This document shows, in pieces, positions 7,899 to 56,656 of a DNA stretch of 64,000 nt. Positions within the stretch are counted from its first letter, which is position 1. Every line of letters begins with the position of its first letter. Source of the DNA: Botryllus schlosseri (Eukaryota); NCBI GenBank assembly GCA_051294905.1, contig CM119371.1:40240001-40304000 (forward strand). The letters run 5' to 3'. The notes under the pieces are model-generated. The model ran no database searches. It had not been told where the DNA came from and saw only the letters and a program-made list of their open reading frames with translations. The position numbers and the translations under genes are program-made.

Positions 7899-8020
7899 AC
7901 TTGTGTAAGTATGTACTGAAAGTAGAGAAAAACTACTCAAGTACCGTACTTTCAAAAATTGGTAACGAAGGACCGTAACAAAGTACTTCTGCTTTTTCAA
8001 AGAGCTTCGTTACCTCTTGA

Positions 8021-10512: not shown

Positions 10513-10717
10513 CTCAAAAATTATATAACTTGGCTGTGTCGATTATTGAGATTCAAGTATTTTATTCAAAAATTATATAACTTGGCTGTGTCGATTATTG
10601 AGATTCAAGTATTTTATTCAAAAATTATATAACTTGGCTGTGTCGATTATTGAGATTCAAGTATTTTATTCAAAAATTATATAACTTGGCTGTGTCGATT
10701 ATTGAGATTCAAGTATT
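10513..10717. repeat. 52-bp tandem repeat, about 3.9 near-identical copies
   Basis: Unit caaaaattatataacttggctgtgtcgattattgagattcaagtattttatt starts at 10515, 10567, 10619 and 10671. Confidence 0.95.
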
Positions 10718-12458: not shown

Positions 12459-12766
12459 TTGAATTCGATTTCCCAGACACCTTGCAATGATGCCCAACAG
12501 CTCATCGTCGATACTGCAGGCTTCTAATCCCAAAGAACGAAGGCTTTGACTCCTTGCTGCAAGCGATCCAACGATATGAGCTTCATCGCGACTCAATGAG
12601 ATGCCAGATACACCGATGACGTCAAGATCTTTCATGAGATTGCCGTCGTCTGATTCATAGATCGCTGTATAAAGTTCCACGAGAAGGCGGCTGTTTTTCT
12701 TATTCTCCTCGAGTTGAAGGCGAAGCGATAGACCAAAAACTTGTTGCTTCTTTGTTCCATCCGAGA
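12459..12766 (-). CDS. NLR exon: post-NACHT helical region and first LRR-like repeats
   Basis: Acceptor gttgcgtcacAG (phase 1 matches the NACHT exon). Reads SDGTKKQQVFGLSLRLQLEENKKNSRLLVELYTAIYESDDG...LRSLGLEACSIDDELLGIIARCLGNRIQ (RI-like LRR). Donor caa|GTGAGT, phase 0. Confidence 0.8.
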
Positions 12767-15058: not shown

Positions 15059-15875
15059 CAGAGATGAGCGGATTTGAAATTTCTATGTCCTAATCCAATC
15101 CACACCTTCAAATCCATATCCAAATCCTAATCCATAACTTTTTTATATTCAAGTCCATGTCCAATCCTAATCCGATTCCAACTGGAAATTCAGAACGAAT
15201 AACATAACATAACATTGTTGGGTTATTATTTTTATCTGAACAAGTCACACACAATGTACAATGCGATAAGACACAATACGATGTCATGAACAGATAGGAG
15301 GATGTCGAACGACACGCATCAGTAGCGATACTTTACTCTAACATCCACCTCGGCCTAGAGTGCCCGATGTTACAGTTCTTTTCGATGTGCTTTGAAGCCG
15401 GGTCCTTTTCTACTAGTTCTTTCCATTCCTTGTGAGTGGTTTCTTTCGTCGGGTCTTTTACTGGGCTTTTTTGTCGCCGTAAGAACGGCAACGGCGGGGG
15501 AAGAGGAGCCCAGATAAACCTCCGACGAGAATCGAACCCGGTTCTCCTGCGTGCTGGGCGATTATCGTAACCACTACACTATCTCCCTACATCCATACTA
15601 ATGTATGCAATGGAGGGATTAGAAAATTTTCTTTCACAACCAACGATTCACTTGATTCAAGATAACTTAGTAACGATAAGTACATTAATAACTGATCTGA
15701 ATAAAGTTGATCGCCATTCGCCACACGGCATTTCAATCTCCAAGAAAATGAGTAAATCCAATCCGAATCCTAATCCGTTCTGATAAAAATCTCTAATCCA
15801 AATCCAATCCAAATCCGACAAAATTTCACAAATCCTGTTTTTTCAAAACCTAATCCTAATCCATGCTCATCTCTG
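15059..15875. mobile_element. hAT-type MITE containing a SINE
   Basis: TIRs cagagatgagc / gctcatctctg; perfect 8-bp TSD aatccttg (15051-58, 15876-83); aatcc subterminal repeats. Confidence 0.85.
15223..15587 (-). mobile_element. tRNA-derived SINE
   Basis: Minus strand has Pol III A box tagtgtagtgg (15571-81) and B box ggttcgattct (15528-38), a core shared with 59347-59367, and an aataataa-like tail near 15223. Confidence 0.65.
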
Positions 15876-15984
15876 AATCCTTGGGGTATAAATATATTTC
15901 GAAGAGTGCGAGAATGGTTTGACACCGGCGGCAGCTACAAAGAATCATCATTTTCGCGAATATATGATCACGACGAATAGTAGA

Positions 15985-18900
15985 ACACTTTTTTAAAAGA
16001 TTTAGGCTCCGGACTCTACGTCTACATATATCTCATTAGAATCGAATTGAAATCGGACATTTTCGAAATTTTGATAATCCGGACACAATTATGGCCCCAG
16101 TTGGACCCTTCAGACGTCGACTTGAATAATAATTTTGGTATTGATGGAATCGGCTAGACTAGTAAAATCCATTTCAAAAAGAATTAGGCATCGGACTCAA
16201 CATATATCTCATTAGAATCGAGTTGAAATTGGACAATGGACATATTCGAAATTTCGATAATCCGGACACAATTATGGCCCCAGATCGACCCTTGGGACGT
16301 TGACTTGAATAATAATTTTGGTATTATTGAAATTGGCTAGACTAGTAGAATCCATTACAAAAAGACTCTACATATATCTCATTAGAATCGAATTGAAATC
16401 GGACATTTTCGAAATTTTGATAATCCGGATACAATTATGGCCCCAGTATGACCCTTGGGACGTCGACTTGAATAATAATTTTGGTATTGATAGAATCGGC
16501 GAGACTAGTAGAATCCATTTCAAAAAGAATTAGGCTTGGGACTCTGCATATATCTCATTGGAATCGAATTGAAATCAAACATTTTCGAAATTTTAATAAT
16601 CCGGACACAATTATAGCCCCAGATCGACCCTTGGGACGTAGACTTGAATAATAATTTTGGTCTCGATAGAAGCGGCCAAACTAGTAGAATCCATTTCAAA
16701 AAGAATTAGGCTTCGGACCTCTACATATCTCTCATTAGAATCGAATTGAAATCGAACATTTTCGAAATTTTGATAATCCGGACACAATTATGGCCCCAGA
16801 TGGAACCCTTGGGACGTCGATTTGAATAATAATTTTGGTATTGATGGAATCGGCTACACTAGTAGAATCCATTTAAAAACGAATTAGGCTTCTGACTCTA
16901 CATATATATCATTAGAATCAAATTGAAATCGGACATTTTTGAAATTTCGGTAATCCGGACACAATTATGGCCCCAATTCGACCCTTGGGACGTCGACTTG
17001 AATAATAATTTTGGTCTCGATAGAAGCGGCCAGATTAGTAGAATCCATTTCAAAAAGAATTAGGCTTTGGACTCTACATACATCTCATTAGAATCGAATA
17101 GAAATTATACATATTCGAAATTTCGATAATCCGGACATAATTATAGCCCCAGATCGACCCTTGGGATGTCGACTTGAATAATAATGTTGGTATTGATGGA
17201 ATTGGCTAGACTAGTAGAATCCATTTCAAAAAGAATTAGGCTTCGGACTCTACATATATCTCATTAGAATCGAATTGAAATCGAACATTTTCGAAATTTT
17301 GATAATGTGGACACAATTATGGCCCCAGATCGACCCTTGGGACGTAGACTTAAATAATAATTTTGGTCTCGATAGAAGCGGCCAGACTAGTAGAATCCAT
17401 TTCAAAAATAATTAGGCTTTGGACTCTACATACATCTCATTAGAATCGAATTGAAATTATACATATTCGAAATTTCGATAATCCGGACATAATTATGGCC
17501 CCAGAGCGACCCTTGGGATGTCGACTTGAATAATAATTTTGGTATTGATGGAATTGGCTAGACTAGTATAATCCATTTCAAAAAGAATTAGGCTTCGGAC
17601 TCTACATATATCTCATTAGAATCGAATTGAAATCGAACATTTTCGAAATTTTGATAATCTGGACACAATTATGGCCCCAGATCGACCCTTGGGACGTCGA
17701 CTTGAATAAAAATTTTGGTATTGATGGAATCGGCGAAACTAGTAGAATCCATTTCAAAAAGAATTAAGCTTCGGACTCTACATATATCTCATTAGAATCG
17801 AATTGAAATCGGACATTTTCGAAATTTCGGTAATCCGGAAACAATTATGGCCCCAATTCGACCCTTGGGACGTCGACTTGAATGATAATTTTGGTCTCGA
17901 TAGAAGCGGCCAGATTAGTAGAATCCATTTCAAAAAGAATTAGGCTTCGGACTCTACATACATCTCATTAGAATCGAATTGAAATTATACATATTCGAAA
18001 TTTCGATAATCCGGACATAATTATGGCCCCAGATCGACCCTTGGGATGTCGACTTGAATAATAATTTTGGTATTGATGGAATTGGCTAGACTAGTAGAAT
18101 CCATTTCAAAAAGAATTAGGCTTCGGACTCTACATATATCTCATTAGAATCGAATTGAAATCGAACATTTTCGAAATTTTGATAATGTGGACACAATTAT
18201 GGCCCCAGATCGACCCTTGGGACGTAGACTTGAATAAAAATTTTGGTATTGATGGAATCGGCGAAACTAGTAGAATCCATTTCAAAAAGAATTAGGCTTC
18301 GGACTCTACATATGTCTCATTAGAATCGAATTGAAATCGGACATATTCGAAATTTCGATAATCCGGACACAATTATGGCCCCGGTTCGACCCTTGGGACG
18401 TCGACTTGAATAATAATTTTTGTATTGATAGAATCGGCGAGACTAGTAGAATCCATTTCAAAAAGAATTAGGCTTCGGACTCTACATATATCTCATTAGA
18501 ATCGAATTGAAATCGGACATATTCTTTTTGAAATGGATTTTACTAGTCTGGCCACTTCTATCGAGACCAAAATTATTATTCAAATCGACGTCCCAAGGGT
18601 CCAACTGGGGCCATAATTGTGTCCGGATTATCAAAATTTCGAAAATGTTCGATTTCAATTCGATTCTAATGAGATATATGTAGAGTCCGAAGCCTAATTC
18701 TTTTTGAAATGGATTCTACTAGTCTGGCCGCTTCTATCGAGACCAAAATTATTATTCAAGTCGACGTCCCAAGGGTCGAACTGGGGCCATAATTGTGTCC
18801 GGATTACCGAAATTTCGAAAATGTCCGATTTCAATTCGATTCTAATGACATATATGTAGAGTCCGAAGCCTAATTCGTTTTAAATGGATTCTACTAGTCT

Positions 18901-19023
18901 AGATGATTCCATCAATACCAAAATTATTATTCAAGTCGACGTCCCAAGGGTCGAACTGGGGCCATAATTGTGTCCAGATTACCGAAATTTCGAAAATGTC
19001 TGATTTCAATTCGATTCTAATGA
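15985..19023. repeat. 176-bp satellite array: about 14.5 direct units, then about 2.8 inverted units
   Basis: tcattagaatcgaattgaaat recurs every 176 bp (e.g. 17261, 17613). From 18521 the sequence is the reverse complement of the unit. Confidence 0.95.
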
Positions 19024-19844
19024 GGATTGTCGGTATAGTGGAGGAGCGCACGATTCAGAGTTCATACTTCTATATGGGGTGCGTCATTCTCCTCTGCCGT
19101 TCAAATCGGTACTGCTGGCTCTGATTTCAAAGGGCGCTACTATATTAAAAACGAAAAATGAAGCCACACTGAATCGCGCCCAGCGCGAAAAAAATTTCAT
19201 GGTTAATTAAAATCTCTCAAGAAATCGGTAGTAAATTCGTAAATTCAAATTGCATGTTGACGGCCGCCAACGCATACTAATTGAATCACGAGTCCACGGC
19301 CGCACAAATTCCCATCTACGGCCGCAGGTTGACCACCCCTGGTTTAGTACGTTTTGGCGATTCTATATTTTTGATATAGCAGACAGGAGGTCATATAACG
19401 AAGTCATACCAACGGGTCCACCCGGCCGAAAATGTTTAGTTATTTTTACTGGTCCTACAATTTCCAAGACACCTCATCAGCTGTACCGGTACATCTAATA
19501 ACGCGAGCAGATAGGACAAGAAATTGATAGCAATATGTAGGCCTATACAATTCCTGATCTTATTGACCGATTTTATGATTATTCTCTTTATTCACAGTAA
19601 AACTGGTAGATACACACATAATCCGGGGAGCAACCTGCCCCCAAAGGAAAATGGCGAGATTGGAGTAAATTTTTAAAATTTCAGTAATACATTCAAATTG
19701 TTATTCCTATGCAATACACGGAGAAGTCACATTACAGAATTGCAGCAGATGAAGAATTGGCAAGGGTTACAGAGCAGAGGTAGAGATGATTGAAGATGAA
19801 GAATCGAAATTACAGAAATTATGCTGTGATTCACAAGTGTAATT

Positions 19845-20130
19845 TTAGTCCAGTGGTGCATTCAGGGCCTTCCGAAGAATGTGCACAGTGCCCAATAATG
19901 TGATCTTTTGGATCATGTCGAATCGAACGTTACCCGGAATTTGTTGGATATGTCTCATGAGTTTTTTGCTCACGACCCCTGTAGCACCAATGACTATCGG
20001 TACAATGTTTATTTTGCATCGCCACATTTTCTCACATTCTATTTTGAGGTCTGCGTATTTGGAGTATTTTTCTGATTCTTTTTGCAGTAGGTTGTGATCA
20101 GCTGGGACAGCCAGTTCAATGAATAAGCAT
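19845..20130 (-). pseudogene. R4/Dong ORF C-terminal REL endonuclease part
   Basis: (ECL)FIELAVPADHNLLQKESEKYSKYADLKIECEKMWRCKINIVPIVIGATGVV...MIQKITLLGTVHILRKAL: typical E, KxxxY and PIVIGATG motifs of REL. Confidence 0.88.
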
Positions 20131-20830
20131 TAGGGTTGTCCAAAATTTGAAAAATTTCGAAAATGCTGCGTTGTAATGTCTTATTCTATAGATTATTGAT
20201 TAAAAACATCAACAAGCCTGAAAGAAGCTCTCAGGAACGTCGTTAAGATTTCTTACAAAGCGTTTGAAAGTAGCTGCCAAAGAGTGGGCGGGCCACCGAC
20301 GGCGAAATTGCAACTAGGCGGGCAATGACGAAACCACGATTCTTGATTGGGTAATCGGTTATGCTTCAACGATGACGGCGGCTGTCAGCTCTGATTTGGG
20401 TGCTTCACCGTGTTTGACAGAAGGAGTAGGTTTTGCTGCTGCTGAGTCTGTTGGTGACGGCTGTAATACTGTAAAAGCGTGTTGTGGTTTGATGAGTCAA
20501 TAGTAGTAATGTAACAGTGGTTCTTCGAATGTATCAGTTGTAGCAGTAGTTTCTGTTTTGCGGAGGTCGAGTCTGTTAGTAGAGACGGGAATTTGTAAAG
20601 CGCATTGTGGGTTGATGCATCAATAGTTGTAATGCAACACTTGTTCCTTGCTCAATGTTTTAGTTGCAGCAGCATTTTCTGTTCTGATGAGGTCGATTTT
20701 GTTAGTAGTGGTTGTGGTTATGTACAAGGGCATTGTGGGTTGGTGAGTTAATAGTCGTAATGTAACACTTGTTACTTAAATGTTTTAAACGTAGCTGTAA
20801 TTTATGATAGAAGGCAAAAATATTACTGTC

Positions 20831-20941
20831 ATGGCAGAGGCAAAACGGCGGAAGACTGTGCACTTGCCACAGAGAAGAACAAGATCTCGATCTGAGCATT
20901 ACTTGGTCGGATATGCTTGCGATTACATCTGTGGCTCGAGA
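20831..20941 (+). CDS. N-terminus of the hAT transposase, separated by the CMC insertion
   Basis: MAEAKRRKTVHLPQRRTRSRSEHYLVGYACDYICGSR joins LPTLREVMSYF (29678) in frame after removing 20942-29675 and one GA copy. Confidence 0.8.
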
Positions 20942-23188
20942 CCCAGCAAACACATAATTGCCTATGGCTATCCAAGCAGTGTCCGAGTGTCCCAGTGTCC
21001 GGTTGGACAGACGTGGGCTAATACGTGGCTATCCACGTTCGAAAATGTGCGGTTCGGATATCCTAGGACATACATACAGAAAAACATTTCGGATAGTCCA
21101 CTAAAAGTCCTAATTCAATTTTCAATGGATATCATAATCTAACAGTGTGCGGATATTTCCATGTTGTATCAGCTAAAAAGTCAACCACTCAAGTTCTTGC
21201 TGATAAGGGCACATATTTCATCCTTTCAAAATATTTCTCGAGTACAGTTCGAAAGAAAATCGCACATTTACACACCGATATTCGGGATAGTCCACTGAAA
21301 GTGCGAATCAGAATTCCAATGGATATCATATTCAGACAGTGTGAGGATAGCTCCATTTTGTTTCAGCTATAAAGTCAATCTCTCATTTACTCCCGACGCT
21401 GATATGCACAAATTGCACATATTTCAGTATTTCAAACTATTTCAAGAGAATTTCAAGGAAAATCGTCACTGGACGTGATTCTTCATAGCGACGTCACGTA
21501 ACCGGATTATGCTTGCTGGCATTGAACGGTCAATATTCACTATCGAGCCTACTTTTCAAGCTTTTAAACTTTGTCATTTCTGTGTCCTTTTAGCTGTCGT
21601 GTTACTGTTTGTTCCTGCGGTTAACATTCGCAATTCCGAAAGATGTTACGAACTTTTTGCGTGCGTCATGCCGTGAGATGTTTAGCGTTTTTCACTTGAA
21701 TGCACTCAGTGGGTCGGCAGAAATGGCGACTGCGCACAGTGAATCTGACTTGATCGCCATATAATTGACAAGGATGATATGCTGGTATATTGAATAGTTA
21801 ATGGTATACTCTATTATCGACTTCGATAATGGTACATTCTCTTTCGTACTTTTATTTCGAGCATGTAATAAACTTTACAATTTTTGTACCGCATAATGTT
21901 TTACCGATGTTAGCCCGCTTAATACCACTCAACGATTGACGAGCTTTCCTAGTGCGTCGCGCGGCGCCATGCGTGAAGTGAATGAGATCATTAGCCTTTT
22001 TCATCGATATGCGCAGTGGCGGATTGCGCAGCGAGCCCAGTTCACGTGATTCAAATTTTCGTCTGGGAAGTTTGAACTGTGTTTCTGTGAAGTGAATTGC
22101 TGTCAGCGGCGAGAAGCATTTTCGACATTTGCTGTGTGCCACTTGGCTCGGTGATTACTTAACCATAACCACTCGTTGTGGCAGTGTAGTCAGTCATGAT
22201 ACGGTCAGAAGTCAGAAGTGGCGTATGTGCAGAACAAAAATGCGCTTGGTTATTGAATCCCTATAGTAAAGAGCTATGACGGATGTTCGACAGGCCTATT
22301 ATTGTTTAGAGTTGATACTGTTATAGTACGTCCTTTTATTGTAACCAAACCTGATTTCTTGATCAACATAAGGTAAGAGTTACTGTTTTGTGATTTATGA
22401 CTGGAAGTGGAGTGGAAGGTAACATTTGACAGGATTTGACTGACCGCAAGAAGCTATCAGAATTTCTGAATTAGACCCGTAACCCAAATTGAGTGATAGA
22501 CCTCCCTACTCAAGAGTCGTGGTTGCTGGTATTTCAATCATGATATTAATGCTTGGCTTCCAAATTGTATTATTGAAGTACCGATATTCAATTCTACCCA
22601 GCCCTATATCTATATATATATATATATGGTTACCGTATGAGTACTATATTGCAATATACTAACTTGGATAGCTCGGCATCGGATGCGGGGAAAGAACGAT
22701 GGATACGAAGATCTACCAAATATGATTCCGATTCAAGGTCTGATTCGGGTGGTCACGAAAAGATTCAAAGAAAACGCACATGTTCCACTGATACCAGTGA
22801 TACGGATCTTGCTGAAGCTCAAGCAAAACAGTTCGAAAAGAAATCTCAGCACCTTGAAAAGAAGTGAAGGAGGCAATCTGCCAGTAATGTCATGATTTTA
22901 CTGACAGTGCATCACCAATTCACCAAATGCAGGTTAGAGCTTAATTCCTCCATGTGGTATCAAAACAGCAAGAAATCTGCAGTTATGACCGTTTGATTTG
23001 TAAAAAGATTATTTAACTCTTATATATAGCTGAGTAGAGTAGAACTGAGTACCGTATGTAAGTTATGAATTATTTGAAATTTTTTATGCTCATGCAATGA
23101 TGACTGTAGAAACTTCCAATTTGATAACTCAACGGTAATGCTAGAGCTGGCAACCAGAACGCACAATTTAATTACACTTACTTACTTT

Positions 23189-23799
23189 AGTTACTTTCGC
23201 ACTGACTCCGATAAGACAAATGAAAATCTGGTCCGGGCACTGGAACGCCCTCAAAGGGCCAAAGTCGGTATTGTTCCTATCAATGGTATCGTCGGTAGAC
23301 AATGACCGTTCAATGTCTCTTACTGATTATGACATCATTGAGCACCTTGGCGAAGTCGTGTGCCGTGTTCCCCGTGATTCTCAGAGTATAGCGCGCCGTA
23401 TCAATCGCTGTAACGCGAATAAGTGGTAATGTGAATAGTTTGTGTATTTTGCGTCGTCGCGCATTCAAAAATTTGGATAAATACAAATTATAGCACAAAA
23501 GCCTACACATATATCGTAGAATTTACTATCAACGCGTATTTCTTAGTACGCAACAGGCCGATCTACGAAACAGTTTGTTCCATTCGGTACAGCGGTTCAT
23601 GAATTTCATTGTAATATAGATTCAGCACGTCTTCGCCAAGGCGCTCAATGATGTCACAATCAGTTCGAGACATTTGATTTGTCATTGTCTACTGCCGCTA
23701 AAGCAATGGCGATTTCGGACTTTGAAGGCAATTTTCGGGGCGTTTTAGTGCCTGGACCAGATTTTAATTTATATTTTCTGAATCAGTGCGAAAGTAGCT
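23189..23799. mobile_element. Palindromic MITE (Harbinger-like termini) inside the CMC element
   Basis: agttactttcgcactga...gacatcattgagcaccttggcgaag is mirrored by cttcgccaaggcgctcaatgatgtc...tcagtgcgaaagtagct. Confidence 0.65.
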
Positions 23800-25615
23800 T
23801 TATATTGAGACCTGTTTTATTAAATTTTGCGCTCTGTTCGCCAGCTATAAGATTACCATTATTTGACTGCGTTTAATCAACCCATGCCTGTTATTGTGTG
23901 TTTGAGGTGCCACTGACTGTTATTTATCTGTTCAGATACGTTGTCTCAGCAAGTAGCCCATCCTAGAGAGAGTCGTCTAGGTTCATTCTGCTGGGAATTT
24001 CCTACTTGAAATGGTGAGTATATAGTATATTAATTTGATTAGCGCGGAGTTTTCCCATAGAGTGGCAACTGATAAAGTTGAGCAGAACTGGGAAGAAAGC
24101 TTTTTGTGCACTGAGTTTATGCAAGACACTATATATCGTAGGTTGAACTAGTTTGTCGTCTCTATGAATTGTTTACTATAATCTTCCTGTTTAGGTGCTT
24201 GTTGCAATATTCCTACGACTGTTCCGGAAAAGGACTACGAGATTGCAGTCAGATCTATGTTGCGCCATGCACCATCCAAAAACAGAAATCAGCAATACGA
24301 GGTAGATGCAATATTGATTGTCTAAATATATCGCGCAGAGGGGATAATGGTTATATTGCGTAATCATAGGCGCCGACTTTTATTTCTACATAGGGTGACC
24401 AGATGAAACAAGGGAGGGGTTTGAAATTTCTTTAAGTTTACCAAGTTAGCATCATTTATTACGGTTAAGTACATGTATCCTCTGATGTTTCAGTATTAGC
24501 GCTGATCAATTATGTTCGTTCGCGTCTGTTCGTGGCCAATTGCGCAGATTCAGGTTTATTCAATTTGACGCTGTCAGTCTTAAACCAGTACAACATAACA
24601 ATCAAATGAGTAACATAACAATCAAATGTGTAGAGATACCACGCAAATCATATGATGCCTGTAGCAGACGCTATAGTTTAGGCCAGCGATGTTATCACAT
24701 GCGCCAGTCCTGCTGTAGACTCGATAGTTCAGGCTGGAAACGATATCAGGCATAGCCTGGCGCACATGATATTTCATGCCAGCGATTATAGCATGCAGGC
24801 GTGCATGCGGACGCGTTGAATCAAACCAGCGACGATAGCTCATATCAGATGTCAATGACCCAATATTGCACACAAATGATTCTCGCTAATTTGCAGTACG
24901 CAGCACCGATGATACGAATTATCAAATTGACATTTCGAAAGGACGGTATTTAGAGTTTTAAGTGGGGAACTCCATGGCTATGCGCGTAGGGTTTTTAATA
25001 CTAATGACACACTGTTTAATATCAGCCCAGAGCCTACGTAGGCCCCGATCAGCCAGTCGAATTTGATCGCGAAATGGTGTTATATTTATCCATGTGTTGT
25101 TGCAGCAAGAGCAATATGGCCGCATACCGCGACCTTATCAATAGAAATACAAACCTAATGGTTTGAAATTCGATCTGCGATATGGTTGAGCTCGAGTCCG
25201 TCCAGCAATGAAGCTTATTGTATTGGAAAATAAATGGTTCCCAATGTTCCCATTCAAACTAATCGAATAAATTCAGAATTTACGCCACAGAAAACCTTGT
25301 GTTGCATCACTATTTGACAACGTAATTCAACGCCATGCACTGCACAATGCGCAGTATTATCAACGAATCAAACACCAACAGGTGACATCGAGGGAATACG
25401 AGTGTATAAACCAGACAAGAATTAGTACCCTACAGATGATAGCAAACGAGAAAGCACGCATCCGAGGCTTACGATACGAATATTGTAGGCCTTGCCTGGC
25501 GCATCTAATCCATAATTCCCAAAATTGAATTCAGCACAATTGGTTGGAACCTAGTCTAACAACACGACAATTGCATGTCGAAAACCCGGATTACAATTTA
25601 TTGGGGCGTTTCAAG

Positions 25616-26931
25616 CAGTGGCGTATCCAGGGGGGGGGTTTTAGGGGGTCGGAACCCCCCCCTTTTCAAAATCCTAAAAATTGATGTAAAATATAGCCTC
25701 TAATATTTGCTAATTTATTAGTTTAACATATTCGTTTTTACGTATGAGAAGGCGAATATGGCGTGTTAATGTTATTTAGGGGACTAAAACCCCTACCAAA
25801 TCTCGGAATCATGCGCCGAATTAGTCGAAAGGATAAAATAGGTCATTATATTTCGCTAATTCCATACGAATTCTGCGCTTGTTCAGCTACATTTCAGCGG
25901 TAGTTGCTGACGTTCTCAACTTTCTTCCCTCGATTTCTCTCTCGCCTTGCTAAAACGAGAGACGCATTTCAGGAAAATCTAATCTAATTGGCCGACGCGA
26001 TACGTAATTGCAAAGACGAAGTTGTCGGCAATCAACATCGCCCGCGAATTCGCTGCACCTGCTCGCCTTGAAATCCTAATTAAGAATTGCACGGCGTGTT
26101 GATTGATCAGCGAGACGCAGACACGGCGGCACCAGTACGACAATACTATTCTCAAATCCACATTGTCTTCGCGATTATTGGCGAGAAATGGTCTACGATT
26201 GACATTCACCTTTCAAAATACAAGCCTAGCAATCCACGTTCCCGATTGTTAGGTGGCTTGCTTGCGTCCAAATACAGGCCTGTGTTGTCGCTGAACGGGA
26301 GAATTGAGTAGGCCTAGTAGTAAAGTTAACCTAATTATATCGGCTGACAAGTTTCTCTGTAGATCAAGTTATTATCCCAGTGTGTACTTTGTATTAATTG
26401 ACTGACTTGCGTACTTGCAATTAAGGTCTAATTACCTTCGCGCGTACTACACGCTCAGCCGTAAGGCTAGTAAAGCCATCGAAAAGCACACATTCGTGTA
26501 CGACGTACACTGTTCACACCACTCTGTGGCGATTGCGATCGCCCTCGTTTATGCTACCGCCTTATTCCGCGCTTGTTCGTGCGCTGCGATACTACCGACC
26601 GTGCGAATAATATCGTCAAAAACCAACAAAATCGCGCATCTCTGGCCGGAACTAGGCGCTTGGAGACGGTCGGCGTTTGCTGGCTCATGACTAAATGTGA
26701 GCATTTACGAATTTCTTTCAATCATACCGTAAAAGAAACGCGATTTTCATGCAATGTCTGTATCGTATTCGTACATCTCCCACTCACCGCAAATCTCTTT
26801 TTATTATTAAACTATAGAATATCGTAAATATTCGCCATGGCGTGGAGACGAGTGATTGTAATGATGACGTCATAATAGTCAATTCCGTACCGCAAAACCC
26901 CCCCCTTTTTCGCGCTCTGGATACGCGCCTG
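25616..26931. mobile_element. hAT-type MITE inside the CMC element
   Basis: TIRs cagtggcgtatccag / ctggatacgcgcctg; perfect 8-bp TSD gtttcaag (25608-15, 26932-39). Confidence 0.88.
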
Positions 26932-28654
26932 GTTTCAAGCATTAGTTTGTCGCCGCCTAGGAAGCTGCGTATTCAATTATTTGCGCGTGAATCGGTTAAT
27001 GGTAAATAGTTGGCATTTACGCGATATCACGGACTCGCTCATTGACAGCGCTGATGTCGTATTGAAATGACCAGACAATAGAGACATACGAAAATTTGAA
27101 ATCGCAGACGGCGGGCGTTTCAGCATATTGTATGGGGTGCCCCCCCGTAACTCGGCGCCCATGACCATACTCATATATTTACCCGTTGTTTTACCTACGT
27201 GTCAGTTTTTTTTTTCGTTTTCGTGGTCGTTAATTTTAGTGTGAAAAGTAGTTTATTTGCAAAGTATATCACCATTACTTGAACGTGTCTATTAGCTATT
27301 TCAATGAAGTCTACTAATTTCCAGCTAATCCGTGTCATATCTTTTACTCGTCAACTGGCGATGTTTTCATCCAAACTCTACCATGGGCCCCTGTAAAGAT
27401 GGAAATGAGTGGAAAAAAGCATCCCTACATCTTAGGCATTTTTGATCATGTCGGAGTGGTGAAATTTCCCACCGTAAAGACTATTATTTGGAAAATGATG
27501 GAATTTTCGAATTGGATGACCTCAGCATCTACTGGTTGAAATGAGTCAAATTTGTTGTGCAAGGTATTTTAGGTAACCTAATGATTTGCCAGTTGAGCCA
27601 ATCAAATTTGAAAAAAGTTTTTTTTGAGCACCCTTAGTGTCCACTGTTCTATAATGGTCATAAATTTTAATATTCATGATTTGTACGTTAATGCATAGTA
27701 TGCTGTACTTGTCAGTGTTTGAATGTATTTTGCAAGGCTTTCGGAGTTGGTAGCATTTTGAAGGATTGTTTCATGTTCGCTTGTAATGATTTTCTTGCTA
27801 ATTATTTTAGGACAAGAATGCAGAACAAGTCCATATCCTGTCTCAGCCTTAAGCAGACGATGACGAAGAAGAGGATGCTGTATAAAGTCATTCCCCTCCT
27901 ACCAACTTTTGACCTCGTTGCAAGTTAAACCTGTATGAAGATTGAAGATATTTCCAGCTAGAGAGATTGTTGATTGCAAGTGTGCATTGCTTGCTGTGGA
28001 ATTTTTTACAAGTTACAGTTGAATTTGCTGATTATTATTTTCATCTGCTCTAGACGATCAAAAAGGGGTGAAAGTTAGTCATCCTTGCTGCTCAAGTAAA
28101 GGTGGATGTAAAATTGTGACTACTTGAGTACTTTCCAAAAGTAGAACGAGTCGCACACTTGCAGGTTACTGCAGCTGGTAGAGGCCGCTTTCAAAATTGC
28201 AGGATGTACCATCGCGAAAAATATATAATGGCACTCCAATTATAGTGCGATTTCTAAATTGCATTCACTATTACTACATTATAGGGGCTATCTAACTGTT
28301 TATGTCTTAGAAAGGTAAGTAGAAGTAGTCACAAAAACATGCAGTGAAAGTAGAAAAAACTTGAGTAGAAGTGCTTTGTTTGTTATACTGCATCTTGAAC
28401 AATGTGTGACAGATCTGCACATAGAGGATGTCGGAACGACCGATTGACCAGAGTAAAACATCCTATTTTTCTTGTATCTCTATTCGTATTACCTCTTCAC
28501 CTTGAATAGTTGCCATCTTAAATGTTAATGTCAGGTCTTTCCCTAATGTGCATGATTTTTACTGTCATTGAAGAACTTCAACCTGCCACTTTTTGAATTT
28601 TTTTACCGTCTCATTTCTAATGTATTCTCATATTGTGAACGTAATTTTTCAACT

Positions 28655-29162
28655 TGATTTGACAGTTGTTGCTTTGACTCGATGCTGACTTCTTTTACTT
28701 CACTGCAATTTTTAATGTATCACTATGTCTTCTTGCATAATGATTTTCAAAACTTGCCAACCTCTGTATTTCTGATACATTTGTGTATGCGCAATTGTAC
28801 ATGTGTAATGCGGTGCGTGTCTTCTATTTGCTTCGCCAGGTAATTGCTTCGACCTATCATAATTTTTCAACACTCGCCCATGTGTCGTATTCTGTAATCC
28901 TATCGGTGTGAACTGTGCATGCTTCTTTACCTTGATTGATTGACAGTTGTTGCTTTGACTCAATGCTGTGCTGTGCTTCACTTTGCTGCAGTTTTTATTA
29001 TTGCCTATAATGGTTTTCAAAACTTGCCAACCTCTGGTATTTCTGATATAGTTGTGTATGTGTAATGCGGTGCGTGTCTTGTTTTCATTCTCATTGACGA
29101 AATTCAAGGTAATTGCTTCGAACTTTCTTTAATTTTTCAACACTAGCCCATGTGTGGTATTC
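28655..29162. repeat. About 280-bp diverged tandem duplication
   Basis: gacagttgttgctttgactc at 28661 and 28942; tttcaaaacttgccaacctctg and tgtaatgcggtgcgtgtctt are also repeated. Confidence 0.8.
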
Positions 29163-29677
29163 TTCCCAGTGTACATACTTCGTAGTCATCTTATTTTTTG
29201 CCTGATTGATCGACTGCTTGTGATATTTTCAAGTCCACCTGCATCTTTATGGCATCTCTTTAACTTGAGTGAATGATTGATTTTGACGTGATTTACAGCA
29301 GTTGTTAATTTTACTTGTTGATGCTTTTTATTGTTGAAAATTTGATAATATAAGCTTTTTGCCTCAAAATCAATCTTGTGTCAGTATATTTCTGCGTCGC
29401 CTAACCTGTGGTATAAGGGAATATGCAGGTCCAGGAGCTAGCTATAGCTAGCTAGTGTTCAGAGGGTTGATCAGTGGATAGTCTATGGATATCAGTCTCA
29501 ACCAGACTTTGTCCCTACAGTGGCCAGGAAATGACTTGATTGGATGATAAATGGACGACCACTGGATGACACCAAGATTCGACATTCTCGGTGCGACCGG
29601 ATGACACTAGGATGAATCTGGGCCAAATGACAAGTTATCCGACGGATATCCGTTTGCCGTAATGTGTTTGCTGGGGA

Positions 29678-31867
29678 TTACCAACCTTGCGAGAAGTAAT
29701 GAGTTACTTTCTGCATCTGAAAGACCATTGCCCTCAGTCAACCCCTACTCGTGAGCTATGTAATGTGGTGGTTCATGATGTCATGACAGTGTGGCAAATG
29801 GCGAGAATTGCCACAATACTTAAAGGAAATGCGGTGAAATTACTTGAAAAACTGAACAAAAAATATATTTTTCTGAAGGCGACCATGAAACGGGAAAGTG
29901 ATCCCAAGGGTAAGAGGAAAAAATTCACGGAAGATTTGGACAAGTTGTGGGATATTGGAAGTACAGATGCGATAGCAATAATACAAAATGACATTTATCT
30001 ATCACATGATAGAAAGCTCGAAGACATTGCATTCTATGAAGATGAACAGCAATCTCGCAAATGCATAATGTTGGGAAGAGACAAGATTCTCGCTAAAGAC
30101 ATCGAAAAGAAAACAGCAACCATGGCGGATAGAACTGTTAAAAACATTCAACATGACTCAAGTGATGACTATGTTGTTTTAGCATCTTCTTCATCTTCAA
30201 AAGAGGGTGATAGTTTGAGTTCAAGTTCTGATTATGATGCTGATGTTGGTCTTGGCACCTCGACAGCCATTAAGCTGATGGCACCTAAAAATATTATGAA
30301 TAATACCCATGTGTCCCAAGCTCTGGATCGATTGCAAATAACAGACAACAAGGCAACAATGCTGATCGGAGCATTTATTACGGCTTGTGGCGGTGACATA
30401 GCAATGTTCTCTCTGTCAAGATCTTCGACAAAGAGAGCCAGGGAAACAAATCGTCTTGAAATTTCCAAGGATATTTCAGAAAAATTTGCAGAAAATAAAC
30501 CTCAACATGTTGCTATTCATTGGGATGGAAAGCTCACAGAGGATAGATTAGGAAATCGGTATGAGGCTCTGTCAATTGTCCTATCTTGTCATCCTCAATA
30601 CTCAGAAGGAAAACTACTTGGCATTCAAAAGATGCAAAATGCTGCAGGTCAGACGCAAGCAGAAACCACTTTCAACATAATTGAAAGTTGGAATATAAAA
30701 GATGCTGTAACAGCTTTGGTTTTTGACACTACAGCAAGCAACAGCGGCTGGAAGAAGGGTGCGGCAAAGATTCTTGAAGACCTTCTAGGAAGGAAGGTGT
30801 TCTACCATGCATGTCGGCACCATGTGTATGAGCTGGTAGTGAAAGACGTTTGGAAATCTTTATTTGGAAAGGCCACAACTGGACCAGAGAATGCATGGTT
30901 TGCCCACCTTAAAAGGAACTGGAGCAGTCTTGACAGGGAACAGCAATTCAAGACTCTGACTATTCCTCTATGTTTTGCTGAACGAGCTGCAATGATAGTT
31001 GATAAGTTCAAGCTACTGTTGAACAGAAAAGATTTTTTCACACGGGATGACTACAAGCAATGTGTGACTAATGCTCTTGCTCTTCTCGGTGCAGATGAAG
31101 ATATACGTCATCACAAACCTGGTGCAGCACACCATGCGAGATGGATGGGTACAATTCTGTATGCTCAAAAGATGTTCATGTGGGCCGACCAATTAGATTA
31201 CAAATCTGAAGAAGTTGAACTGCTGCGCCGCTTCAATTTATTTTTGGTTCTCTTTTATATCCCTGCGTGGGTGGATTCAAGCATTGGTCGTGATGCAGCT
31301 GGTAATGACTTGAGATTCGTTCAGCACATGTTGAGTTATAAGGAATATGATGAGCAAGTTTCCACAGCTGCTTCACGAAAGCTTTTGAAGCACGACTGGT
31401 ATATTGTTGAGGAAACCGCTGTATACGCCTTGTTTTCACCGACGGAAAGCAAGGAAACCCGGGAAAATATGGCAAAGGCGCTCCTGCAAGTAGAGCGAAC
31501 TTCCAGTTTCAGAAGGGGCCCACCCTCATTGAATGCAACTATACAGATCAACAAGGACAGTACGTTGTCTGACCTTATTGGGCCCCAGTCGTGGTACATA
31601 TTTGAAGTTTTTGAATGCTCTGGGGATTGGCTGCGTCAACCGGTTGATGATTGGCACTTTTCAGATTCATTCAATAAAATGAATTGCTACGTTAGTTCTG
31701 TCAAAGTCGTTAATGATGCCGCAGAAAGAGGTGTCAAGCTAATCACAGACTATGCTGCAATCTTGACTGACAATGAACAGCAAAGAGACAGTTTGCTTCA
31801 AGCTGTGGAACAGCATAGGAAGATTTTTGGAGACAGCAGGAAGTCTACTCTTATCAAAGGCCAGTGA
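29678..31867 (+). CDS. hAT-like transposase, main part (N-terminal 37 codons at 20831-20941)
   Basis: Uninterrupted frame with IHWDGK, VFDTTASNSG, ACRHH (CxxH), HHARWM and VVNDAAERGVKL; lies inside the TIR-bounded element. Confidence 0.88.
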   Translation, partial: LPTLREVMSYFLHLKDHCPQSTPTRELCNVVVHDVMTVWQMARIATILKGNAVKLLEKLNKKYIFLKATMKRESDPKGKRKKFTEDLDKLWDIGSTDAIAIIQNDIYLSHDRKLEDIAFYEDEQQSRKCIMLGRDKILAKDIEKKTATMADRTVKNIQHDSSDDYVVLASSSSSKEGDSLSSSSDYDADVGLGTSTAIKLMAPKNIMNNTHVSQALDRLQITDNKATMLIGAFITACGGDIAMFSLSRSSTKRARETNRLEISKDISEKFAENKPQHVAIHWDGKLTEDRLGNRYEALSIVLSCHPQYSEGKLLGIQKMQNAAGQTQAETTFNIIESWNIKDAVTALVFDTTASNSGWKKGAAKILEDLLGRKVFYHACRHHVYELVVKDVWKSLFGKATTGPENAWFAHLKRNWSSLDREQQFKTLTIPLCFAERAAMIVDKFKLLLNRKDFFTRDDYKQCVTNALALLGADEDIRHHKPGAAHHARWMGTILYAQKMFMWADQLDYKSEEVELLRRFNLFLVLFYIPAWVDSSIGRDAAGNDLRFVQHMLSYKEYDEQVSTAASRKLLKHDWYIVEETAVYALFSPTESKETRENMAKALLQVERTSSFRRGPPSLNATIQINKDSTLSDLIGPQSWYIFEVFECSGDWLRQPVDDWHFSDSFNKMNCYVSSVKVVNDAAERGVKLITDYAAILTDNEQQRDSLLQAVEQHRKIFGDSRKSTLIKGQ

Positions 31868-32570
31868 TCTGCAACACTGACCCTGCGATATACTTTTTAA
31901 TGATGCCTTTTGTAAATAGCATTTTTGCCTTTGTTAAATCTTGAATAAAAAGTGTAATATGCGTTCGTTTTAGAGAGAGACGTCGACTTACCATAACAAG
32001 CCATAAGGAGAAATTGACTACTGGTTTGCAATTTATGAGTTACAGTCGTTGTCAACTGGTATGTTTTAGAAGGCTCGAAGGTAGCACGATGCATGCATCT
32101 AGTTCATTCTTATCTTAATTGGCCAAGCTCCTGTGCAAGAAGTAACAAAACTGTTATACACAGTGTTCAGGTAGAAAATATATTATTGGATCGTTATGCT
32201 GTTGTCGATGGCAGCATTAACAACGTCAATTTACCATATCGCCAATGCCACGAACAGAAATGGCTGCAAACCAACACAACAGAGTAGAACGAAATCGTGA
32301 CCAGCAATGATCACAAAATCAGTATTTCAGCCAATCAGTAGCTTATTATTACAGGTTCCAACCAATCAAAATTCTAGGTTCGTGATTGCCCGCCCACTTC
32401 ATCGATTCCCCGCCCACATGCAGACGGCTACTTTCAAACGCTTTGTAAGAAATCTTAACGACGTTCCTGAGAGCTTCTTTCAGGCTTGTTGATGTTTTTA
32501 ATCAATAATCTATAGAATAAGACATTACAACGCAGCATTTTCGAAATTTTTCAAATTTTGGACAACCCTA

Positions 32571-35500
32571 ATAAGCATTCTCTTTTCTTTTTTAGTTTGA
32601 CGATTATATCCGGGCGGTTGCTCCTGATTTCGCGGTCAGTTATAACTGGTACATCCCACAGAATTTTTACTTGTTCGTTTTCTGTCACTGGTGCTGGGCT
32701 GTAATCGTACCAATTTTTTGTCGAAGTGGTGATGTTAAAATGTTTGCATAATTCAAGATGAATGTAGTGACCAATCCTATTGTGTCTCCATGTGTATTCG
32801 GTAGCTGCAAGTGCACCACAGCCGGACATGAGATGTGCTACAGTTTCATTTTGGTTGTGGCACATTCTGCATTTGCCGTCCGTGTTTTGCTTCAGAATTC
32901 TTTTGCGATAGTATTTTGTAGGAAGCGATTGGTCTTGTGCTGCGAAAATGAATCCTTCGCTTGCCGGTTTCAGGCCACAGCTGGATAGCCAGGTCCATGA
33001 AAGCTCGTCTACATGGGGCTGTGAAGTTAACTTCTTGTGCTGTCCATGAAGAGGCATCGACTCCCATATCGTTTCTCTCATTTTGAGCGTTGCATTTTTG
33101 TATCGGACTCGTGCTGCTTTTGCTATTGTTGTGGGTTTAGCAACAGTGTTTTCTGCAGTGTACAGGTTAGCTGTTTCTATGTTGACTTCTTTGACGTACT
33201 TGTCGTGACGATAGCTCAGAGATTTTGTTTTGCGCTGTTTGTCTTCCTGTGCAATGAGTTTGCAGTAAATGTTATCGCTGTTGTTGATGTACTGTGACAA
33301 GCCGATGATTTCTGTTTTGAAAGTTTGTTCAATTTCTTGTAGTCCTCGACCACCTTTTTTTCTGGGGATGTACAGTCTTTGTGTGTCAGATTTTGGGTGA
33401 TGCATGTGGTGCATTGTCATCAGTTTTCTCGTCTTTGTGTCCAATTTTTTAATTTCATCTTTGCGCCAGTTCACCACACCAAAGCTATATCTCAAGACAG
33501 GCACTGCAAGACTGTTTATGGCATTGATTTTGTTTTTGGAATTGAGTTCAGTTTTGAGAATTGACTTGAGCCTGCTGATGTATTCTTTTTTTAGACTTGA
33601 TTTCATTGCAGCATGTTTAATGTTGTCGCTTTCACAGATCCCTAGATATTTATAGTGATCTTCAGCATTCAATTCTGTTATGGTTTCACCCATTTTGAAG
33701 TTCATGTCGCCAGTGCTGGTGGCTCTTCCACGTCGTATGGTAAGTTTTGAGCATTTATCCAAGCCAAATTTCATTTTTATATCATCCGAAAACTCATGAA
33801 CAATTTTCATTTGGTTATTCAGGTCCGTATCAGATTTCGCATACAGTTTCAGATCATCCATGAACAAAAGGTGATGAATCTTTTGACCTTCAGAATTTGC
33901 TGCTTTTTTCATCACGTATCCTGTTTCATTTTTTCTCAGCAACTCACTGAGTGGAGCTAAGCTGAGGCAGAATAGAAGTGGTGAGAATGAGTCGCCTTGG
34001 AAGATACCATTGCATATCTGAATTGTACAGGTTTCTGTTTCACCTTGGTCATGTTTGATCAACAGTTTTGTATGCCAATTTTTCATTGAATTTTCAATAA
34101 ATCTGATGATGATCGGATTCATTTTGTACATACGCATTGTTTTCAGTATCCACGTGTGAGGGACTGAATCGAAAGCTTTTTTGTAATCTATCCATGCCAT
34201 GCTGAGGTTAGTGTGTCTCCTCTTGCAGTTTTCAAGAATGGTTTTGTCAAGGAGCAGGTGGTCCTTACAGCCAAGGGCGCCTTCCTTGCATCCTTTCTGC
34301 TCAGGCGGTAGAAGATTTTCTAGGTGTTTGTAGCTTCGTTTTGCCAGGATTTTGGTCAGTGTTTTGTACATGGTTGTCAGGCATGTTATTGGCCTGTAGT
34401 TCTTGGGGTCCCTGGTGTTTTCATTTTTTGGAATAAGATAGGTGATCCCTTGTGTGAACCAGGCTGGGATCTCGTGCGAGCTGGTTGAGGATAAAAGCTC
34501 ATTATAGGTTACCGCTAGGTAATAATGTGTTGCAGTTAGTTTTTTTAGCCAAAAGTTTTTGATCTGGTCAGGACCAGCTGCTTTCCAGTTCAGTGAACTT
34601 TTTAGGGCCTCCATGATTTCTTGTTTTGTGATTTCTGACCATTGTTGTTCTGGTGTTTGTAGATGGTCAGTGTGGAGGTCTTGTATCCAATTTGCATTTG
34701 AGTTGTGCAATTTTTTGGTTTCCCATATTTTCTTCCAAAATGATTCCACATCTGCAGTGGCTGGTATTTTGCTGCTGGTAAGTTTTTGATTTGACTTTTG
34801 TTTCATCATTCGAAAAAATTGTCCAGGTTTGCGAGCAAATAACAAATTTTGGCGATATTGTGTTTCTCGTTTTTTATATCGTTTCAATCGTTGTGCTTTG
34901 GCGCATATTTTCATTTTTAATTCTTCTTGCAGCATTGTCACTTTTTCTGTTGACTGCAGTTTGGTTTGGTGCTCCAGTTCTATTCTTTTTACTTTATTTT
35001 TTACTTTGCGGGAAACATTTCCTTTTTTTAGTTCTGAGAGTATCGCAACGTCACACCTTAGTTTTGCGATTTTGTTTTCAATTCTGCGTTGCCAAGCTGG
35101 CGTATGCCTTCCCCTTTTTTTTGTTGACAGTTCTTGGTATTTTGCAGTGCCTTTCTGAGATAACTGCCGCAGTGCTGTAAATGAGGTTGTTGATTGTTGT
35201 CAAGGGACATTGTGGTCTTTCTCCTTGTTTGTCATTTAGAGTTGCAGGTAGTATGGTTTCTGTCAAAATTTTGTTCGCTACTGCAATATCAGTTTTCAGT
35301 TTCTTTGTAATTTGTAAGTCAGGTAACTGCACTCTGTCATTTACATTCAATGTGGATTTCATTCGGTCGATGATTTGATTTTTGATCTCCAATTCTAATT
35401 CCGTGTCTATGTCGCCATCGTTAGGTGTTGTTGATTCATTCGGGTGCCGGGTGGTATTTTGTAATTCTACTTCTGCGTTGTTCGGGTCATCAAGTGATTG

Positions 35501-35605
35501 TTGTGGGTTCAGGTCATCTTGACCGAATTGCAGTTCCATTGCCTCAGAGTTTTCTATGTTTTTGTTACACATTTCTCCCTCGATTTCTGCGAGTTCTTGT
35601 TCAGA
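32571..35605 (-). pseudogene. R4/Dong ORF, N-terminal and RT portion (one frameshift near 35110-35122)
   Basis: ORF 35078-35572 (INNLIYSTAAVI) shifts frame at an A8G4 run into PAWQRRIENKIAKLR..., which continues in frame into ORF 32551-34941. Confidence 0.85.
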
Positions 35606-35607
35606 TA

Positions 35608-35634
35608 ATTATTATTATTATTATTATTATTATT
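35608..35634. repeat. (ATT)9 microsatellite, likely Dong target site
   Basis: Directly abuts the truncated 5' end of the R4/Dong ORF. Confidence 0.9.
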
Positions 35635-37209
35635 GGATACGACAGTGGTGCTTTTAGCCAGGTTAAGGCCCTGTGCTCCACGACATTGCAATTACACGGA
35701 CAGTACACAATGAATTTCATTTTTTCGGGTCTCTGACGTTCTTCCACTCTCGCTTTATCGTCGTATCTTTGCTTCACTTTTTCATTCTTCTTGCACTCTC
35801 ACAGTCTCTTTCACGCACACTTCATCAGTTGATAATCGTCTCTGTTGCTACCGAATTATAGCTCGGCTCACTGTAGCTGGGCTTTTAATGTCACTGACTA
35901 GCGATTTTATGATGAATTATAGCGAATTTTCGCGATCCGCGTTGGCTCGCTGAACAGTACGGTTAATTACGTGGCAAAAGCGAAAAACGTGATTTGGGGG
36001 GATGGTTTATCACCCTATGGGAGCCCAAGACCCTATTCTTTTTGGTCCTGACGAAGTGCTGTTTCCTTCCTGCCAATAGGTAGCCTATACGCCTAAAGAT
36101 GTTTAATTATTATTGAGGGGTCCTACCTTTTTAAACACACCTCCCTCAGCTCTACCGGTAAATCTGATTCCGTGAGAAGATATAGGATAAAAATTGATAG
36201 CAATATATATGCAATTCCCGACGATATAAACCGATTCAAGAATGAATTATTTAAATTTTTGCGCTTCGCGCGTCTGGACGAGAGCAGCTGGCTCGCTAAA
36301 CGGACACCCAACGTAGATGACACGTAGCGGCAAAGAGTGTACATCCAAAGGGGGGTCCGGGGGGCAAAGCCTCAAAAGGTTCGGTTTATCGCCATGTGGG
36401 GGGGGGGGGGCAAGACCAACGTTTTTTTGGGGGGGCTGACGAAGTGCTGCTACACGGCCGTGCTGAAGAACATTATACAACGAAAGAATATCCCATTTAG
36501 CTGGATAAATAATAGACCGCGACCAATATTTTACAACATGTATTCGATTGTGCAGGTGCATCAAGACCTCATAGCTTCAAAGTGATAATTTCGTATAGTA
36601 AATTACAACATCAATCAAATTGCTTGTGTTGATCGATGTAACTAGTTAACTGGGATCTTAGTGGCGAGATAATTTACAGATACCGTTGAGGTGAGTTCCA
36701 CATTTGCAACGCCAGTGGGTTGCGTGTAGGGCTGGGCAAAATCGAGTACCTGAGTGATTCGAGTATGACCCATTATGACGTCATAGCAGAATGAAATATG
36801 TCAAAGTTCAAATATGTACCCTTTATGCGACCACAAAGAATATAATGGCTGTTTTCGAGGGTTACTATTTTGGAATCGGGAAAGGAGGACACTTTTCAAA
36901 ATTTTCAGACTTCGAATACCGGAGGAACATCCAGAACAAATGGTATATTTTGACCACCTAGTGGTCGGTTGACTAAAAAAATGTCGACTTACCGGCCCAA
37001 CTCCAGAAATGCAGTACGCCTATTTCTTTCACACTTTACGTTGGTTGAATAAAAAAAAGAGAGAAAAAAGTCAACTTTACGGCTCAGCTCCCAAAATACA
37101 GTTTCTTTCATATTATCAGTTGGTTGACAAAAAAGATCTTCATTCTTGTTCAAACCACGAAATTCCCATTTAACGTCATTAATGCCCATTTTACCTCATA
37201 TCTGACCAC

Positions 37210-38133: not shown

Positions 38134-38806
38134 CTGACCACTATATTAGCTCTAAAAGCGATAAAGGAGGACGAATTCCCAAAATCGAGGACATTTTGGA
38201 GTCCTCGGAGGACATTTTCTAACTCCCGATAAAGGAGGACAAATCCTCCTAAAGGTAATCCTACTGTTATCCATCACATTAAAGATACTTGGGTATTTTT
38301 TTGACCATACCGATTTCATTGCACTTTGTGACAATGTTGTGAATCATGACTCCGGAAATGCAACTTCGCAACTGCCATATGTAATCCACTATTTGGTTAA
38401 TTTGTACCAGTGTCGACATATAACCAACGTGATGTGGTTCAATTTAAGGTAGGCTAATAATTTAATGAATATGCATTTTTTCACTGGAATATTGATCCAC
38501 TCAGGCCGCCTGATACACGGATTTGTGGGGCTGCATGATTTCTGAACTTGTCGATGTTTCAAACTCGACGGTCATTTTGTATCATGCCGATATTTATGTT
38601 ACTGATTTGTTAACTGCCGACTTGAAAACAGTGACCGATTTCGTTCTTGGCATTTTTACGTAACACTTTTGCGGACTGGCTGGCCTTTCCAACATTTAGT
38701 TAGGGCTTATGAGTTAACTCCTGGTTTCCAACCAGGAATCAATTGGATGTTTGCAGCAGGGGAATTTCAAATATTACCAAACAAGATAAACGTATAAATG
38801 TCTGAC

Positions 38807-56651: not shown

Positions 56652-56656
56652 CTGTA

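Follow-up and report, generated by a model that had tools for sequence, protein, structure and literature searches.

In repeat-rich genomes, elements with terminal inverted repeats (TIRs) commonly land inside earlier copies of transposable elements (TEs); in maize, about 70% of copies are nested in this way (PMC8547701). Dong non-long-terminal-repeat (non-LTR) retrotransposons target (TAA)n (PMC7998251), hATm elements make target-site duplications (TSDs) of 8 or 9 bp (PMC6004678), and CCC termini combined with a 2-bp TSD are the signature of animal TRC/CACTA elements (PMC1636069, PMC4298943), among which Hydra EnSpm-4N1_HM begins CCCAGCCAACA (PMC4298943). The locus analysed here lies in a 64,000-nucleotide stretch of Botryllus schlosseri DNA (assembly GCA_051294905.1, contig CM119371.1, positions 40,240,001 to 40,304,000 of the forward strand), hereafter the window, whose own numbering is used throughout. 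Like the nested TEs of maize, it holds TIR elements inside earlier TE copies, but it differs from them in being a cleanly resolved animal stack of six or seven layers and four kinds of element, the long middle layers of which are almost unmutated. No comparable animal nest was among the papers listed by literature searches, which is not proof that none is in print.

The nest is genuine: its six or seven layers were produced by the known mechanisms of ordinary nested insertion in a repeat-rich animal genome, and we put the probability that it was built stepwise, one insertion after another, at roughly 80%. From the outside inwards we distinguish a high-copy repeat (layer 0), a putative retro-fragment (layer 1), a Dong-like long interspersed nuclear element (LINE; layer 2), a hATm-like transposon (layer 3), a CACTA/TRC-type element (layer 4), a probable older TIR element (layer 5) and a miniature inverted-repeat transposable element (MITE; layer 6). 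An earlier note, made from the letters alone, had described a four-level nest. Its order of LINE, hAT, CACTA-type element and MITE stands, but its count is too low, as it overlooked two outer layers and probably also a further inner one. The three insertions that it named are all present in the sequence, and all three of their TSDs are indeed perfect (8-bp ATAAGCAT, 2-bp GA and 8-bp GTTTCAAG).

The evidence is clearest for the hAT transposon, whose parts are as follows.

20131..32570, plus strand: hATm-like hAT transposon (layer 3), 12,440 bp, or 3,704 bp without its insert
20123..20130, plus strand: left TSD of the hAT, ATAAGCAT
32571..32578, plus strand: right TSD of the hAT, ATAAGCAT
20804..20941, plus strand: first 46 codons of the hAT transposase, 100% identical to residues 1-46 of P0001
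29678..31867, plus strand: codons 47-775 of the hAT transposase, an open frame that retains the conserved D329, D396 and E729

The only two plus-strand copies of ATAAGCAT in the window are those at 20123 and 32571, and the terminal arms that they enclose are identical over about 145 bp. For comparison outside the window we used protein collections and four public runs of the 24 listed, aligned to positions 19300-36300: three contig runs (X1, X7 and X16) and one RNA run (X24). They gave 23 listed records, with a further 87,388 pieces outside that listing, and 15 listed joints of 225. Uninterrupted LINE and hAT copies, which the earlier note had wanted looked for, are present: a joint skipping 12,448 bases, that is, the hAT and one TSD, occurs in all four runs, one of the contigs that show it being 1,081 bases long and extending far to either side, and so does a joint skipping 8,736 bases (layer 4 and one TSD). 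Within the hAT, a frame of 766 codons opens only when the insert is removed together with exactly one 2-bp duplication; three neighbouring control junctions gave frames of just 44, 62 and 43 codons. An intact 775-residue transposase, P0001, encoded on a 3.4-kb public contig, matches both halves and differs at only 3 of the 775 residues.

These observations bear directly on the idea that the nest is an assembly artefact. It would find its support in the fact that none of the listed reads and contigs crosses a junction of this copy, and the assembly of the nest is indeed supported by its internal logic, not by reads. Nevertheless, there are four exact duplications at the expected boundaries, the frame is continuous only at the exact junction, and private substitutions run along every layer; mis-joins do not create TSDs. 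We therefore regard an artefact as scarcely credible.

The hAT encodes a transposase with a DDE core and a hAT insertion domain, and its modelled fold is Hermes-like. The three residues D329, D396 and E729 are conserved in at least 90% of 86 sequences. The alignment-based model (predicted local distance difference test score, pLDDT, 88) has Hermes as its best match in two structure searches: in Foldseek with E 1.5e-7, and in the other with a Z score of 16.2 and a root-mean-square deviation of 4.3 over 370 aligned residues, the next match there reaching a Z score of 11.0. A fold computed from the single sequence had a pLDDT of 34 and was discarded, the transposase gave no Pfam match, and a PDB sequence search with its alignment returned nothing useful. 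The C-terminal dimerisation domain PF05699 was found at E 0.01 in none of the 23 family proteins; the structural match to Hermes extends to Hermes residue 609. Both termini read TAGGGTT, matching six of the seven letters of the hATm motif TAGGGTG given in PMC6004678; because of this match, and because hATm TSDs are 8 or 9 bp long, the element is filed as hATm-like only, on the strength of its termini and TSD. It shares with the hATm family (PMC6004678) and Hermes an 8-bp TSD, long TIRs, six of seven terminal letters and a DDE core with a Hermes-like fold, and differs from them in the seventh terminal letter and in the undetected PF05699 of the 23 family proteins.

Just upstream of the transposase start, the 5' region of the hAT contains a 126-bp tandem repeat of 2.5-3 units (20430-20806). 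As a separate observation, run X16 carries a different organism label and yet contains the hAT (99.8%), the LINE (99.3%), the flanking repeat and the MITE family; DNA of the same species under another label seems likelier than horizontal transfer.

The LINE that received the hAT is represented by three features.

19580..20122, minus strand: 3' part of the LINE, with the end of the endonuclease domain, a stop at about 19845 and the 3' untranslated region
32579..35607, minus strand: 5' part of the LINE, with reverse transcriptase (RT), CCHC finger and the start of the endonuclease; 5'-truncated
35115..35122, minus strand: LINE frameshift at an 8-base homopolymer, where the homologue matches change frame

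Its outer boundary, previously set at 19575, is corrected to 19580. The element contains an RT domain (RVT_1, PF00078, E 3.5e-30), and a C-terminal CCHC finger and restriction-like (PD..D/E) endonuclease motifs can be read in the joined frame and in the homologues; a zf-RVT match (E 7.7e-4) fell short of its cut-off. With the hAT removed, the two parts of the LINE frame meet again within the PD..E endonuclease motif. The comparison set comprised 120 homologues (tblastn), about 1,200 residues long where complete. Matches to the left and to the right of the hAT were obtained with 99 of them, and 98 of the 99 are colinear across its site. The copy begins at about residue 140 of full-length homologues; the two of the 120 that align up to 35608 do so at residues 142 and 136. 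Because it is 5'-truncated by about 140 residues, the LINE was unable to make its enzyme, and was already dead, before the hAT arrived. The homopolymer frameshift is unrelated to any insertion; it could reflect either a mutation or a mistake in the assembly.

The RT, the finger and endonuclease and the TAA site suggest that the LINE is R4/Dong-like. It resembles Dong/R4-clade non-LTR retrotransposons, as described in PMC7998251, in that the RT is followed by a CCHC finger and a restriction-like endonuclease, in lying behind (TAA)n and in having homologues of about 1,200 residues. It differs from them in the loss of about 140 N-terminal residues, which puts the SANT/Myb-like domain beyond view, and in its frameshift. 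It follows from the frameshift and truncation that not every host frame in the nest can be restored, contrary to what had been claimed; furthermore, no frame can be restored in the middle element, and non-coding sequence surrounds the MITE.

The 3' end of a second Dong-like LINE, 74% alike, is found at 58640-58915 with no TAA array at its 3' end. Two GT-AG joints, 33738-33822 and 33868-33938, lie on the strand opposite the LINE RT and are crossed by 189 and 270 RNA reads of X24, respectively, and also by X7 contigs. The reads over these joints have loose ends unlike this locus, and a related LINE copy elsewhere seems to have been exonised in antisense into a well-expressed transcript.

The earlier note further held that each insertion disables the enzyme of its host. 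The insertions do hit open reading frames (ORFs), but this carries no signal: 62% of the hAT and 93% of the LINE copy are coding, so that such hits are at chance level. The claim is further weakened by the prior truncation and frameshift of the LINE, and by the site of the CACTA-type element, which interrupts the transposase at codon 46/47, a long way upstream of its intact DDE core. That insertion leaves 729 transposase codons open, the whole DDE core among them, with an in-frame methionine at residue 53, downstream of a spliced CACTA transcript on the same strand. It is conceivable, though very unlikely in our view, that the hAT and its CACTA cargo form a mobile composite in which the CACTA does not kill the transposase but switches it reversibly. 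If so, a truncated transposase could arise by read-through, and the full one would be regained on precise excision.

Outside the LINE, two further layers were recognised.

19342..19567, no strand assigned: left part of layer 0, a high-copy interspersed repeat hosting the whole nest, identified by copy matches and depth
35914..36089, no strand assigned: right part of layer 0, continuation of the host repeat, identified by the alignment of the empty-site join
19568..19579, plus strand: left copy of a 12-bp direct repeat, the probable TSD of layer 1
35902..35913, plus strand: right copy of the 12-bp direct repeat
35608..35634, minus strand: (TAA)9 microsatellite, putative tail of layer 1, at which the LINE would have inserted
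35635..35901, minus strand: layer 1, a putative 5'-truncated retro-fragment of about 270 bp

The 12-bp direct repeat has only these two copies in the window, and the chance of such a pair is about 0.002. Joining the sequence across it restores the high-copy repeat: the empty site aligns through the junction to the copy at 36090 with a score of 211, up to position 399, whereas in a control join at the LINE end the alignment to the same copy stops at 255 with a score of 155. When another copy, near 55 kb, served as the reference, the contrast was weak (257 versus 236). The left part of layer 0 matches copies at 54916-55162 and 36091-36236 at 72-75%, the summed depth of the repeat is very high in all three contig runs (a rough contrast only, here and below), and one X7 contig joins 19573 to 35964. 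Layer 1 itself gave no Pfam match over 35635-35901. We would interpret it as the 3' end of another retroelement, whose (TAA)n tail was targeted by the Dong-like LINE; it is read as a tail-bearing host of the LINE because Dong elements insert at (TAA)n (PMC7998251). The idea that 35635-35901 is instead the N-terminal coding part of the LINE itself was rejected, none of the 120 LINE homologues giving a tblastn match there. Separately, 110 RNA reads run from layer 1 past 35902 into other sequence.

Layers 1 and 2 might also be one chimeric retro-insertion, made in a single event by template switching. A single 12-bp duplication encloses both pieces, and the LINE, directly preceded by (TAA)9, has only AATA and no TAA array on its 3' side, as a chimera would have it. 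On the other hand, (TAA)9 stands exactly at the joint, and (TAA)n is what Dong-like elements target (PMC7998251); a chimera appears rather unlikely, and two successive retro-insertions remain our preferred reading.

Layer 4, inside the hAT, has the following two main features.

20942..29675, plus strand: non-autonomous CCC-ended CACTA/TRC-type element, 8,734 bp, TSD GA (20940-41, 29676-77)
22670..27888, plus strand: decayed spliced gene of layer 4, with predicted exons at about 22670-22932, 23936-24013, 24195-24301 and from 27811 onward

Its TIR of 14 bp is perfect, and no other perfect inverted pair of that length exists between 20400-21500 and 21600-32300. The CCC termini lie in these short TIRs and are flanked by the 2-bp TSD, as in CACTA/TRC elements. 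Subterminal short repeats at both ends are a feature of plant CACTA elements, and in layer 4 the counts of the motif GGATA/TATCC over the terminal 400 bp are 9 and 5, compared with 0.7 expected. Neither the 88 ORFs of at least 42 residues nor the six read-through frames of layer 4 contain a match to the Transposase_21-type transposase of autonomous members. Layer 4 is classed as a non-autonomous derivative on the strength of its ends only. With SmTRC1 and Spongebob_HMa, which is EnSpm-4N1_HM, as described in PMC1636069 and PMC4298943, it shares CCC termini, a 2-bp TSD and the presence of copies inside other repeats, and its TIR agrees with 10 of the first 11 letters of the Hydra TIR (PMC4298943). 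The Hydra element is likewise without a readable transposase (PMC4298943). Compared with these animal TRC/CACTA elements, layer 4 is distinguished by the lack of a Transposase_21 remnant, by a decayed spliced gene whose family has no match and by several inner insertions.

This gene is decayed in the present copy, because its predicted exons contain in-frame stops and a frame conflict, but it is still spliced. The GT-AG intron 24014-24194 is removed in one X7 contig and in five X24 reads, and is the only intron seen in reads; the other exons are predictions. RNA depth rises about tenfold in the bin starting at 27805, beside the predicted acceptor at 27811. The transcribed right part of layer 4 also contains a 270-bp internal duplication, 72% alike, at 28645-29163. 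Three candidates were set aside: one exon resembled by eye the C-terminus of DUF4806-type CACTA helper proteins, but this label had no support from searches and is not used; a 138-residue ORF at 28712-29128, inside the 270-bp duplication, had only a sub-threshold ISP1_C match and is treated as non-coding; and matches of metagenome DNA patterns to the left end of layer 4 (two loci, a 21-mer alone, GC content 59% and 50%) are due to chance.

Layer 4 carries several insertions of its own.

25616..26931, no strand assigned: layer 6, hAT-type MITE, 1,316 bp, TIR 12/14, TSD GTTTCAAG (25608-15, 26932-39)
24365..27163, no strand assigned: probable layer 5, an older TIR element of the non-autonomous kind (1,475 bp once the MITE is subtracted), ends matching 13/15
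23131..23860, no strand assigned: palindromic MITE-like side insertion within a predicted intron, with arms that are 73.5% alike across 238 bp
27527..27640, no strand assigned: fragment of another repeat in a predicted intron, 75% to 56538-56655

Layer 6 has an 8-bp TSD, short TIRs, no coding capacity and many copies, all as in a non-autonomous hAT, and its ends differ from those of the layer 3 hAT. The region 24365-27163 probably represents an older TIR element that received the MITE directly; its flanks match at 4 of 8 positions. In X1, depth beside the MITE within layer 5 is 6,900-18,000, compared with 1,800-4,700 elsewhere in layer 4. MITE-free relatives occur in X1 (six contigs) and in X7, with inexact joints. 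At 25512 the X1 depth falls to just 191, so that layer 5 may be missing from other copies of the CACTA. In X16, local depth peaks at 23131-23860. The inner insertions fall in predicted introns of the layer 4 gene, one intron of which is supported by reads.

Further constraints come from divergence, measured as the distance to family contigs, the longest among those listed, and not to parent copies. Relative to X16, the LINE has 24 differences in 3277 positions (0.73%) and the hAT 7 in 3436 (0.20%; p 0.002). Relative to X7, the CACTA-type element has 13 differences in 3120 (0.42%), counted over five contigs that match its interior, and the hAT 5 in 2062 (0.24%; p 0.34). The LINE is older than the hAT, whereas the order of hAT and CACTA is not separable by divergence. 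That the outer layers are recent, as previously proposed, agrees with the X16 values for both. The MITE presents a very different picture, with 20 differences in 334 positions and 5 gaps (about 6%) relative to one X16 contig. It appears to be much older than its hosts, which supports the idea of passengers and suggests that the CACTA arrived with old insertions already on board. The proposal that the middle element moved as a degenerate, non-autonomous unit has likewise fared well: no transposase remnant was found, relatives are 99.6% identical across the interior, and the MITE is about 6% from its family contig.

The contrast in age could also be apparent only, the MITE (and layer 5) having inserted after the CACTA arrived and the inversion merely reflecting a diverse MITE family. 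The perfect 8-bp TSD of the MITE fits late insertion, as does the fact that its letters in the window are almost unsupported in X1 (0 of 16,867 at 26750 and 44 of 28,815 at 26210, with the depth of 191 at 25512), which would be expected if this MITE copy were missing from other copies of the CACTA. Yet unsupported letters are also expected as private mutations, about 5 in 1.3 kb at the 0.4% rate of the CACTA, and the imperfect TIRs (12/14) and the lost TSD of layer 5 point to age. We find late insertion rather unlikely and favour old passengers.

In another alternative, which goes back to the earlier note, a hAT copy at some other site received the CACTA, and the resulting composite of 12.4 kb was subsequently carried into the LINE in trans as a single unit. 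Both ends of the hAT are intact and identical over about 145 bp, intact transposase genes exist, and the CACTA is no less diverged than the hAT. Nevertheless, no second composite was seen among the listed records of the four runs, all of which contain uninterrupted hATs. In addition, X7 record 21 has 663 of its 1,182 letters on the right end of layer 4 and none of the remainder listed on this stretch, suggesting that the CACTA can move alone and has independent insertion sites. On balance, joint movement is unlikely, and we retain separate insertions.

The stepwise history would have proceeded in four steps. First, a 5'-truncated retro-fragment with a (TAA)n tail would have entered the high-copy repeat, making the 12-bp duplication. 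Second, an R4/Dong-like LINE, homing to TAA repeats, may have inserted behind the tail, 5'-truncated and dead on arrival. Third, a young cut-and-paste hATm-like element would have landed in the LINE endonuclease domain with an 8-bp TSD. Fourth, and presumably last, the non-autonomous CACTA/TRC-type element, probably moved in trans, would have landed at transposase codon 46/47 with a 2-bp TSD. Most likely it brought older passengers, the palindromic MITE and the TIR element holding the 1.3-kb MITE, both in predicted introns.

Several points weigh against this history. None of the 23 listed records bridges any junction of this copy, several letters of the window lack support in X1, and the nest copy may be absent from the sampled individuals, that is, polymorphic. 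The TAA array is on the 5' side of the LINE only. Layer 5 has no TSD, and the exact 1,324-bp skip of the MITE is not among the 15 of 225 joints listed. The age of the MITE comes from one contig and is a distance to the family, not to a twin, and its window letters have low X1 support, accompanied by the low depth at 25512. Finally, the layer 4 gene has no Pfam match and no homologue in the Atlas, in a word-index search among longer proteins or in phmmer over 1.84 billion representatives.

The locus records the recent activity of at least three unrelated transposon families (Dong-like LINE, hATm-like and CACTA/TRC-type), puts their activity in order and could supply population studies with presence/absence markers. 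Another lesson concerns dating by nesting order: an inner element that arrives aboard a non-autonomous carrier can exceed its host in age. The locus reveals no new mechanism and opens no long-standing question, the elements being of known kinds.

As for the neighbourhood, an Rfam scan of 19000-36600 gave a single match (E 0.23), far below its cut-off. On the left, a satellite array of about 17 units of 176 bp occupies 16021-19024, with a switch in orientation at about 18521. Farther out, a 332-residue ORF on the minus strand (6485-7483) gave no Pfam match; by eye, we take it to resemble the RT end and GIY-YIG part of a Penelope-like element. On the right, the nest is adjoined by an NLR-type immune gene, a 507-residue ORF on the minus strand (38739-40262) with NACHT (E 1.1e-15) and NOD2 winged-helix domains. 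Beyond it lie a 21/24-bp minisatellite of about 20 units at 50137-50575 and a 425-bp tandem duplication at 63068-63940.

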